Shown: one piece after another, positions 2,780-5,721 of the stretch
How the letters are laid out: each line of letters opens with the position of its first letter
Position numbering within the stretch: the stretch's first letter is position 1
Position numbers and translations under genes: made by a program
IMG/VR virus record: IMGVR_UViG_2541047844_000003
Reading direction: 5' to 3' (one strand)
DNA: 7,336 bases
From: a virus
Lineage: Duplodnaviria; Heunggongvirae; Uroviricota; Caudoviricetes
Notes under the pieces: generated by a model
Seen by the model: only the letters and a program-made list of their open reading frames with translations
What the model was told of the DNA's origin: nothing
Databases searched by the model: none

Positions 2780-3163
2780 ATGCGTGATATTCAGATGGTT
2801 CTTGAGCGTTGGGGAGCGTGGGCGGCTAATAATCATGAAGATGTGACCTGGTCGTCCATTGCCGCCGGTTTTAAGGGATTAATTCCTTCAAAAGTAAAAT
2901 CTCGCCCGCAATGTTGTGACGATGACGCGATGATCATTTGCGGGTGCATGGCCCGTCTGAAAAAGAACAACAGCGATTTGCACGATTTATTAGTAGATTA
3001 TTATGTAGTCGGTATGACATTCATGTCACTGGCAGGTAAGCATTGCTGCTCTGATGGTTATATCGGGAAAAGGTTACAAAAGGCTGAGGGCATAATTGAA
3101 GGGATGTTAATGGCATTAGATATCCGGTTAGAGATGGATATCGTTGTTAATAACTCTAATTAA
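2780..3163 (+). CDS. quuD: late-gene antitermination protein Q (phage 21/82-type Q family), 127 aa
   Basis: Product [26 protein letters not shown]... with Cys clusters ([15 protein letters not shown]), consistent with a small Q antiterminator; matches DLP12 QuuD as recalled. ATG at 2780 preferred over the track's upstream TTG at 2765 because GGAG lies about 8 nt upstream. Confidence 0.8.
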
Positions 3164-3196
3164 TATGCCAATTGTTTACTAAAAATTATTAAAAAT

Positions 3197-3214
3197 GGGG
3201 CGTTGAGACGCCCC
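3197..3214 (-). terminator. candidate rho-independent terminator for the nmpC transcript
   Basis: GGGGCG (3197-3202) / CGCCCC (3209-3214) stem with a 6-nt loop. On the minus strand the stem is followed by ATTTTTAATAATTTTT. About 140 nt beyond the nmpC stop. Confidence 0.4.
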
Positions 3215-3302
3215 CAAAAATAAAGGGTAATATATAACAGAAGGTTTATATAGTTAGAAGCAAGGTTGTGCTTCTAAAGGAAGTGGCTTGAGGGAGCCAC
3301 TT

Positions 3303-3344
3303 ATATGTTGGGGAGGCAACGCCTCCCGCAACATATCTTTTTCG
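3303..3344 (+). terminator. rho-independent terminator downstream of Q
   Basis: Long stem ATATGTTGGGGAGGC (3303-3317), loop AAC, GCCTCCC-g-CAACATAT (3321-3336, one bulged G), followed by CTTTTT (3337-3342). About 15 bp of pairing. Confidence 0.55.
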
Positions 3345-3352
3345 TAATCAGA

Positions 3353-4435
3353 TTAGAACTGGTAAACCAGACCTACAGCAACGATGTCATCAGTATCAAT
3401 ACCAGCTGTTTTGGTAAACTTACTATCGTCAATTAAGTTGATTTTGTAATCAACAAAAGTGGACATGTTTTTATTAAAGTAGTAAGTAGCACCGACATCG
3501 ACATACTTGACTAAGTCTCGGTCACCATGAACACCAAGGTCTTTACCTTTTGACTGAAGGTAAGCAACAGATGGGCGCAGACCGAAGTCAAACTGATATT
3601 GTGCTACTGCTTCAAAGTTTTGTGCTTTGTTTGCAATATGGTTATTACCAAAAACGGTCATATTCTGAGTTTCAGAATATGTGGTAGCCAGATAGATATT
3701 GTTCGCATCATATTTCAGGCCTGCAGCCCATACTTCCGCATTTTTGCCGGAGGCATTGAATTTGCTCTTACCATAGGCGACCTGACCGTCAGTGCGATCT
3801 GATTTAGCATAGGTTGCACCCACGCCGAATCCTTCATACTCATAAGTAGTGGAGAAACCGAAACCATCACCATTGGCTTCAGTTACGTCAGTGCGGTCAT
3901 TTTTACCCTGATACTGAGCAGCAAAGTTCAGGCCATCGACCAGACCAAAGAAGTCGTTGTTACGATAAGTTGCAACACCAGTAGTGCGACCAGTCATGAA
4001 CACATCTGTTTGGGTCCAGGTATCACCACCGAATTCTGGCAGGACGTCAGTCCACGCACCGATGTCGTATGCTACACCGTAGTTACGGCCGTAATCGATT
4101 GAGCCGTAATCACCAAATTTCAGGCCTGCAAATGCAAGACGGGTTTTGTCTTTGGAAGAACCTTGAGATTCAGCGCGGTTGCCTTTGAATTCATATTCCC
4201 ACTGACCGAAACCAGTCAGTTGATCGTTGATTTGGGTTTCACCTTTGAAGCCAAGACGGGCATAAGTAGTATCACCATCATCTGCATCATTAGAGGAGAA
4301 GTAGTGCTTAGCATTAACTTTCCCGTACAGATCCAGCTTGTTACTGTCTTTATTATAAATTTCAGCTGCCTGAGCAGACATCGCCATCAGTACTGATGCA
4401 GCTACAGCAGAAATTGCCACTGTTAATTTTTTCAT
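3353..4435 (-). CDS. nmpC: outer-membrane general porin, OmpC/OmpF/PhoE family (NmpC / Lc-type prophage porin), 360 aa, apparently intact
   Basis: Signal peptide [23 protein letters not shown] followed by AEIYNKD; porin-typical Gly/Tyr/Asp-rich beta-strand sequence; C-terminal ...VGLVYQF ending in Phe, typical of beta-barrel outer-membrane proteins. Opposite orientation between Q and the lysis genes, as in DLP12 and phage PA-2. Confidence 0.9.
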
Positions 4436-4645
4436 CGTGAGCCCTTTTTTTTGAACTATTATTAAAAAATGATGTCACTGCGCGATAAATATTCATCTAA
4501 TCAATGTGATTATTTCAAGATGTAAGTTTTGGTTTCTCGTTTAATTTGTGAAGTAGATCTCTATTTTTATCTGAACTTTTTTCTATCGAATCCTATTCAT
4601 GGCTCTTGGCTGAATAAAAATAAATCTATTAGCCAATTTATATTA

Positions 4646-4674
4646 ATGGCTGTTATTTATAAGTGCTCTATAAT
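4646..4674 (+). promoter_or_regulatory. candidate late-promoter (PR'-like) -10 element
   Basis: Perfect TATAAT at 4669-4674 with a poor -35 (ATGGCT at 4646-4651, 17-nt spacer), about 190 nt upstream of the terminator at 4864-4896. Flanked by inverted 9-mers AGCCAATTT (4631-4639) and AAATTGGCT (4690-4698). Speculative. Confidence 0.2.
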
Positions 4675-4863
4675 TTGAAGGTTCAATTTAAATTGGCTAA
4701 AAATAACGCTGGAAATTATTTGTTGGTTATTTGTTGAGATTTGCTTATGTATTTGTAGTGGTGTTTTCAATACTCGGTAGCATTCTCGCAAATATCATTT
4801 AGTGGTTTACGTACGTAAAAAATTGGTTATGCTGTTAAGAGTGGTTACTTCGTCACACAGCTT

Positions 4864-4896
4864 AAACCCGCCGTCGAGCGGGTTTTTCCATTTTTT
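4864..4896 (+). terminator. rho-independent terminator upstream of the lysis cassette (tR'-like)
   Basis: AAACCCGC (4864-4871) / GCGGGTTT (4878-4885) stem with loop CGTCGA, followed by TTCCATTTTTT. About 110 nt before the essD start. Confidence 0.55.
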
Positions 4897-5008: not shown

Positions 5009-5224
5009 ATGAAATCCATGGATAAGTTAACAACGGGTGTCGCCTATGGCACCTCAGCAGGTAGTGCCGGGTACTGGTTTTTACAGCTGCTCGATAAAGT
5101 CACGCCCTCACAGTGGGCAGCAATAGGTGTGCTGGGTAGCCTGGTATTTGGCCTGCTGACGTACCTGACAAACCTTTATTTCAAGATTAAAGAAGATAAG
5201 CGCAAGGCTGCGAGAGGTGAATAA
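5009..5224 (+). CDS. essD: class II holin (phage 21 S-type pinholin) with dual-start motif, 71 aa
   Basis: Product [71 protein letters not shown] matches S21 as recalled. Two in-frame starts (ATG 5009 and ATG 5018, Met1-Lys-Ser-Met4). Two hydrophobic segments and a basic C-terminus. GAGGTG upstream. Confidence 0.9.
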
Positions 5225-5721
5225 TGCCTCCATCATTACGAAAAGCTGTTGCTGCTGCTATTGGTGGCGGGGCTATTGCTATAGCATCTGTGTTAATCAC
5301 TGGCCCAAGTGGTAACGATGGTCTGGAAGGTGTGAGACATAATCCTTACAAAGACATAGTTGGTGTATGGACTGTATGTTACGGGCATACAGGAAAAGAC
5401 ATCATTCCCGGTAAAACGTATACCGAAGCAGAGTGCAAAGCCCTCCTGAATAAAGACCTTGCCACTGTCGCCAGACAAATTAACCGGTACATCAAAGTCG
5501 ATATACCGGAAACAACGCGCGGCGCTCTTTACTCGTTCGTCTACAACGTGGGTGCTGGCAATTTCAGAACATCGACGCTTCTTCGCAAAATAAACCAGGG
5601 TGATATTAAAGGCGCATGTGATCAGCTACGGCGCTGGACATACGCTGGCGGTAATCAATGGAAAGGACTGATGACTCGCCGTGAGATTGAGCGTGAAGTC
5701 TGTTTGTGGGGGAAACAATGA
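5224..5721 (+). CDS. rrrD: SAR (signal-anchor-release) endolysin, lysozyme family, 165 aa
   Basis: N-terminal Gly/Ala-rich weakly hydrophobic SAR segment ([20 protein letters not shown]) followed by a T4-lysozyme-like domain ([10 protein letters not shown]..., [11 protein letters not shown]). Start overlaps the essD stop (TAATG). Matches phage 21 R / DLP12 RrrD as recalled. Confidence 0.9.

Follow-up and report, generated by a model that had tools for sequence, protein, structure and literature searches.

What occupies the short interval between the late antiterminator gene and the convergent porin gene of a DLP12/PA-2-type prophage? From the DNA letters, the original prediction had placed four consecutive stem-loops here; two were expected as convergent terminators and two were not, and the surplus hairpins were suggested to mark a structured RNA or elements of RNA stability or processing. 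The stretch of DNA that we analyzed (7,336 nt, hereafter the window) belongs to a lambdoid prophage of the DLP12/PA-2 type and matches both the DLP12 record of K-12 and the lc record of PA-2. On its plus strand, quuD (2780..3163) encodes a Q-family late antiterminator of 127 aa (Pfam PF06530, E = 8.5e-54). It matches 6P18/6JNX, structures of phage 21 Q, and shares 79-82% identity with Q of Stx phages. The opposing gene on the minus strand, nmpC/lc (3353..4435; annotated after the records of lc from PA-2 and nmpC from K-12), encodes a phage porin of 360 aa (Pfam Porin_1, E = 1.9e-151). It is intact in the window as in PA-2; the K-12 copy carries an IS5 in codon 346. A phage 21-type holin gene (5009-5224), a lysozyme gene (5224-5721) and Rz follow downstream of nmpC. 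Between the stop codons of quuD (3161-3163) and nmpC (3353-3355, minus strand) lies a gap of 189 bp (3164-3352).

All four stem-loops were recovered at the predicted positions with an inverted-repeat finder. On the minus strand, hairpin 1 (3197-3203/3208-3214) has a 7-bp G+C stem, GGGGCGT/ACGCCCC, with a 4-nt loop and is followed by U5 at 3195-3191. Hairpin 2 (3254-3262/3269-3277, TTAGAAGCA/TGCTTCTAA) has a 9-bp stem and hairpin 3 (3281-3288/3295-3302, AAGTGGCT/AGCCACTT) an 8-bp stem, each with a 6-nt loop, while hairpin 4 (3303-3317/3321-3336) has a composite 15-bp stem with one bulge (3328) and is situated 16 nt downstream of the nmpC stop codon. The minus-strand energies of hairpins 1 to 4 are -12.5, -9.6, -10.4 and -22.2 kcal/mol, respectively, with similar values on the plus strand. 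For the gap as a whole, the folding energy is -65.5 kcal/mol on the plus strand (z = -5.9) and -65.1 kcal/mol on the minus strand (z = -7.4). As none of 200 dinucleotide shuffles folded as well as the native gap on either strand, its structure exceeds what is expected by chance.

We are highly confident that the four hairpins form the body of IpeX. This known small RNA of the prophage, which also represents the 3'UTR of nmpC (lc in PA-2), is read from the minus strand. IpeX of DLP12 and PA-2 was reportedly described by Castillo-Keller, Vuong and Misra in 2006. In MG1655, ipeX is placed at 574365-574531 on the reverse strand, with a length of 167 nt (PMC8313858, supplement). Using an offset of 571176 between the window and MG1655, which was derived from the ends of quuD and nmpC in NC_000913.3, this corresponds to 3189..3355 on the minus strand, with the annotated 5' end at the nmpC stop codon, the 3' end in the U-tract after hairpin 1 and all four hairpins inside. 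Over 3150-3365, K-12 strains and the window show 100% identity, and the PA-2 lc record (J02580) is 100% identical over the gap. In both, ipeX lies directly downstream of the nmpC/lc stop on the same strand. The element shares locus, sequence, position after the porin stop and terminator with IpeX of DLP12/PA-2, and the RNA itself does not differ. According to the literature, IpeX is a 167-nt RNA of DLP12 that is also found downstream of lc in PA-2; it is made within the porin transcript, a review describes its processing from a larger precursor, and it lowers OmpC and OmpF post-transcriptionally.

Searches of the whole window against Rfam gave no match at gathering thresholds, and at E-values up to 10 the region 3050-3500 gave chance-level matches only (E above 1). 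A scan for tRNA and tmRNA found none, and the K-12 RefSeq record has nothing annotated in the gap, ipeX included. Since no Rfam model matches and RefSeq lacks ipeX, the identification is based on the supplement coordinates and on reviews, and the same two absences account for the gap having appeared unexplained to a reader of the sequence. The feature is already known and not new, but the observation made from the sequence is real: the suggestion of a structured RNA or of stability and processing elements was borne out, as the whole gap is the IpeX sRNA/3'UTR and gives rise to stable minus-strand 3' ends.

A 43-aa open reading frame on the plus strand (3305-3436) starts within hairpin 4 and runs antisense into nmpC. 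The PA-2 record contains a CDS ("ORF1") with the same frame and stop and an upstream start, and in phage 434B a CDS with this frame and stop is annotated as a hypothetical protein pseudogene. The reading frame, which overlaps both IpeX and the porin gene, probably does not represent a gene.

To locate transcript ends, we used the curated 3' ends determined by Term-seq of MG1655 under three growth conditions (Adams et al. 2021, Supplementary file 1). Minus-strand ends at 574367/574366 correspond to window positions 3191/3190, at the last U of the U5 after hairpin 1 (Adams et al. 2021). Hairpin 1 was also flagged on the minus strand by a terminator scan (GGGGCGTCTCAACGCCCC + ATTTTTAATA, with the tail AUUUUU). 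By both lines of evidence, IpeX ends at a Rho-independent terminator that it has in common with the porin gene. The 3' ends did not map to the two outer terminators only: an abundant additional minus-strand end, classified as "orphan", was reported at 574476 (Adams et al. 2021), which is window position 3300, 3 nt past hairpin 4. Such an end points to cleavage, or to the arrest of an exonuclease, between hairpins 4 and 3. It is also compatible with cleavage or trimming of the RNA at this site, and IpeX species shorter than 167 nt may result from it. The transposase gene of the IS5 in K-12 has the same direction as nmpC and reads into ipeX, so that read-through from IS5 is a plausible source of the K-12 minus-strand transcripts.

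The gap could also be read as a plain pair of convergent terminators that acts as a two-way insulator, with hairpin 4 stopping quuD transcripts, hairpin 1 stopping nmpC transcripts, and hairpins 2 and 3 being incidental. On the plus strand, hairpin 4 and its tail (3303..3342) do form a putative terminator for transcripts leaving quuD: the stem is strong (-20.8 kcal/mol) and is followed by CTTTTT (3337-3342), a C and five T. Any stop on this strand would need hairpin 4, since hairpin 1 has no T-run there. Our comparison set comprised 197 related loci (51 distinct variants) taken from IMG/VR and from genomes of E. coli, with E. albertii in addition; the five T are kept in 152 of the 197 loci, but the run is reduced to four T in 44 and to three in one, whereas the U5 after hairpin 1 is intact in 196. 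Hairpin 4 was not called by the terminator scan on the plus strand, probably because the rules of the scan have no provision for a bulged stem. Further, MG1655 Term-seq lists no plus-strand 3' end at 574510-574529, where termination by hairpin 4 would fall, which is weak evidence as quuD is possibly silent in the cryptic prophage. The reading also leaves hairpins 2 and 3 and the conserved linker unexplained. We therefore consider it unlikely, although it is compatible with IpeX. Of the two convergent terminators that had been predicted, hairpin 1 is confirmed on the minus strand by Term-seq, while a plus-strand role of hairpin 4 remains a resemblance in sequence.

Alternatively, the palindromes could act as DNA, either as hot spots of recombination and insertion at a module edge or as protein-binding sites. 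The gap does lie at the edge of an inserted module, and IS5 family elements are found at 3227/3228 (strain JB2) and in nmpC codon 346 (K-12). However, transcription of the region is seen, and two of the hairpins coincide with defined 3' ends on the minus strand; published genetics also assign its activity to the RNA. The repeats also differ in sequence, so they share no common binding motif. We regard a role as DNA as highly improbable and retain the reading as an RNA.

The ipeX element is present in 2510 of 5426 complete E. coli genomes (about 46%). Variable alignment columns are concentrated in the loops (12 of 19 columns, compared with 17 of 78 in stems; Fisher p = 0.0013); hairpin 1 combines a nearly invariant stem with a variable loop. 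Covariation analysis of 24 distinct variants, including E. albertii, gave no signal beyond shuffles and is without power, because the sequences are 96% identical. The sole double change, from C-G to U-A in the loop-closing pair of hairpin 4 in E. albertii, is within the range of the shuffles. One-sided changes that yield G-U pairs occur at seven sites on the minus strand and at four on the plus strand, a difference that is not significant but suggestive of a lean towards the minus strand. In hairpin 2, such changes leave three pairs as G-U on the minus strand and mismatched on the plus strand, and a fourth pair shows the opposite. Hairpin 3 is cut to 6 bp in a common variant ("type B"), in which the change G3311C also shifts the bulge of hairpin 4 with 15 bp retained. 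The most conserved part of the gap is the stretch 3217-3251, which is near-invariant in the alignment.

Outside E. coli, homology in E. albertii ends right past the terminator U-tract. A search behind NmpC-like porins in genomes of 80 other species recovered ipeX from E. coli and E. albertii only, and the 3'UTRs behind chromosomal porins of Salmonella, Citrobacter and Enterobacter are unrelated to it. As homology in E. albertii stops after the terminator and the NmpC-like porins of other genera lack ipeX, IpeX travels with the phage porin and not with Q.

Independent insertions of IS5-family elements within or beside ipeX were seen in two strains. In JB2 (locus L088, 2578/2579, equivalent to window 3227/3228), the element is inside the gap and most of nmpC is lost; in K-12, the IS5 in nmpC codon 346 is 58 bp upstream of the nmpC stop. 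One locus that seemingly contained Q and PR' but no gap was discarded, as it represents an IS5-associated deletion.

The original prediction had also considered that the late promoter might lie just after Q, in which case Q-modified polymerase would have to read antisense through nmpC to reach the lysis genes. The gap would then comprise PR', qut and tR' and give a short plus-strand RNA, analogous to lambda 6S or StxS, that ends at hairpin 4. PR' does directly follow Q in lambda and in Stx phages, where the annotated putative PR', qut and first terminator begin at the Q stop codon with the -35 element overlapping the stop, and hairpin 4 resembles a plus-strand terminator. However, a promoter scan of the plus strand of 3164-3352 found no sigma-70-like site, and what follows Q in Stx phages shows no similarity to the gap; homology to their Q ends near 3139. 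A PR' homologue is present at 4806..4890 on the plus strand instead, beyond nmpC, between the nmpC start and the holin gene. It consists of a -35 element TTTACG (4806-4811), a -10 element TATGCT (4828-4833) and an inferred start at A4840, followed by the conserved block AAGAGTGGTTAC and by a terminator-like hairpin (4864-4885) with a T-run (AAACCCGCCG..CGGGTTT, to 4890) that was flagged by the terminator scan. By BLAST and alignment, window positions 4805-4887 are 77-78% identical to the PR' block of Stx phages, for which the annotated putative PR'/qut/terminator regions of VT2-Sakai, phi24B and Ss-VASD served as references. The AAGAGTGGTTAC block occurs once in each locus listed with a match.

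The inferred start agrees with published transcript data. Published dRNA-seq and Term-seq give the geometry of PR': the start, mapped by dRNA-seq, lies 258 nt ahead of the 3' end of tR', and RNase E cuts at +173 between GU and AUU of GUAUU (Sy et al. 2020). At the Stx2 II locus (L003), both distances fit a start at the A seven bases past the -10 element, which is equivalent to A4840 here. Further, in 166 loci Q is followed by the gap, the porin, its upstream region, the PR' block and the holin, in this order, and the PR' block of strain SHP24 also comes after the porin, with an annotated hypothetical protein and a DNA methyltransferase downstream. A late promoter within the gap is thus extremely unlikely, and the supposition that it lies just after Q was not upheld. 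Because the PR' homologue lies downstream of nmpC, Q-modified polymerase would not need to cross this gene. We infer that porin, ipeX and terminator constitute a module inserted between Q and PR'.

Several further features of this region were observed. Stx phages carry a strong-looking terminator hairpin about 25-50 nt after the PR' start (1980-2006 in L003, corresponding to 4864-4890 in the window). Since the published StxS precursor, at 258 nt, extends to a second terminator, transcription evidently continues past the first hairpin; no second terminator before the holin gene was found in the window. QuuD has 127 aa, and Q of Stx phages runs about 19 codons further, with homology ending near 3139 (3131-3163, plus strand). 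Just upstream of the PR' -35 element, 4780-4815 (plus strand) has a weak likeness to the 3' coding end of Stx-phage Q (tttacgtacgtaa versus tttacgatcgtaa) and may be a relic of the Q end that was displaced by the insertion. Phage Lambda_ev087 (L004, 2879-3010) encodes a Q that is 88-89% identical to QuuD over aa 1-120 and has a different sequence after Q, comprising TTGCTG-17-TAATGT, a terminator resembling that of StxS and a lipocalin gene on the opposite strand. No AAGAGTGGTTAC block was found within 2.5 kb downstream of Q in this phage.

A candidate seed for pairing with ompC and ompF is formed by IpeX nt 105-139 (3217..3251, minus strand), a mostly unpaired linker between hairpin 2 and the terminator, about half of which is unpaired in the ensemble. 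Duplex and cofold predictions, alignment to the porin leaders and its near-invariance single out this stretch. In the alignment, the plus-strand sequence of 3217-3251 resembles the leaders of ompC and ompF, and IpeX is consequently complementary to them. Folding of duplexes between full-length IpeX and its targets was abandoned, since it produced unrealistic long duplexes, and was replaced by duplex prediction with the unpaired stretch and by cofolding. The stretch pairs with ompC -32..-2 through 15 bp (one of them G-U) and 9 bp, covering GAGGG, at -26.7 kcal/mol. This energy was reached by none of 300 shuffles and by 0.13% of 6000 natural prophage windows. Pairing with ompF -24..+9 was computed at -18.8 kcal/mol, reached by 2.4% of the windows. 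When full-length IpeX was cofolded with full leaders, ddG was -17.3 for ompC and -15.1 for ompF, and the four hairpins remained unchanged; cofolding with the leader of nmpC itself gave -7.7 kcal/mol.

The computed complementarity to both leaders is compatible with the reported repression of OmpC and OmpF. The original report of IpeX is said to have found no complementarity and to have proposed a novel mechanism. According to a 2025 review, the effect of IpeX does not rely only on complementarity, and another paper describes IpeX as Hfq-independent, with Hfq being dispensable for the effect on ompC. The computed pairing may thus not be the operative mechanism; it also leaves out of account a competing weak AU hairpin at IpeX nt 104-125. 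Based on these predictions, we offer only tentatively, and at somewhat less than even odds, the proposal that IpeX works by ordinary antisense pairing of nt 105-139 to the Shine-Dalgarno regions of ompC and ompF.

A site near the bor lipoprotein gene (AAAAGGGTAATGGACAGATAGAGCGGTTTATT), outside the window, pairs with the same IpeX stretch at -27.1 kcal/mol and is as complementary to it as the ompC leader. It is found in L128 (about 4526-4780) and in several other IMG/VR prophage contigs.

From these observations, we propose how the element could work. Hairpins 4, 3 and 2 would serve as stability and processing modules that delimit the RNA. Hairpin 4 probably halts 3' exonucleases, and would thereby shield the upstream nmpC mRNA after cleavage and mark a processing boundary. 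The working part would be nt 105-139, which would pair across the Shine-Dalgarno regions of ompC and ompF and block translation initiation as MicC and MicF do. Together, nmpC, ipeX and the terminator would constitute a "moron" situated between Q and the late promoter at 4806-4840.

MicC and MicF are antisense sRNAs that block the translation of ompC and ompF. IpeX has the same reported targets, and its computed pairing likewise covers the Shine-Dalgarno region; however, it has no sequence relationship to MicC or MicF, and its pairing is only computed and is questioned in the literature. IpeX occupies the interval from a stop codon to the intrinsic terminator of the same gene, and in this it is similar to 3'UTR-derived sRNAs such as CpxQ, SroC and UhpU, with which it also shares the reported processing from a parent transcript and a conserved unpaired stretch beside the terminator hairpin. 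Unlike these, it has three extra stable hairpins upstream of the candidate seed, is prophage-borne and was found only in Escherichia, and reportedly does not need Hfq for its effect on ompC. StxS and lambda 6S RNA are likewise short structured RNAs of the lambdoid Q-to-lysis interval that end at an intrinsic terminator, but IpeX is encoded on the opposite strand and has another origin, and the homologue of the StxS-type PR' is located at 4806-4890 and not in the gap.

Two of these results may be of use to annotators: in prophages of the DLP12/PA-2 type, the late promoter is located past the porin module and not after Q, and IpeX carries a clear candidate for a seed that targets ompC and ompF. 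Should the pairing prove functional and previously undescribed, it would settle how a prophage RNA silences host porins, and it would also imply that the seed originated from a porin leader by inverted copying. The element lets the prophage swap the host's major porins for its own. Given its occurrence in about 46% of complete E. coli genomes, an influence on the permeability of the outer membrane, on phage receptors and on the uptake of antibiotics is probable in many strains.
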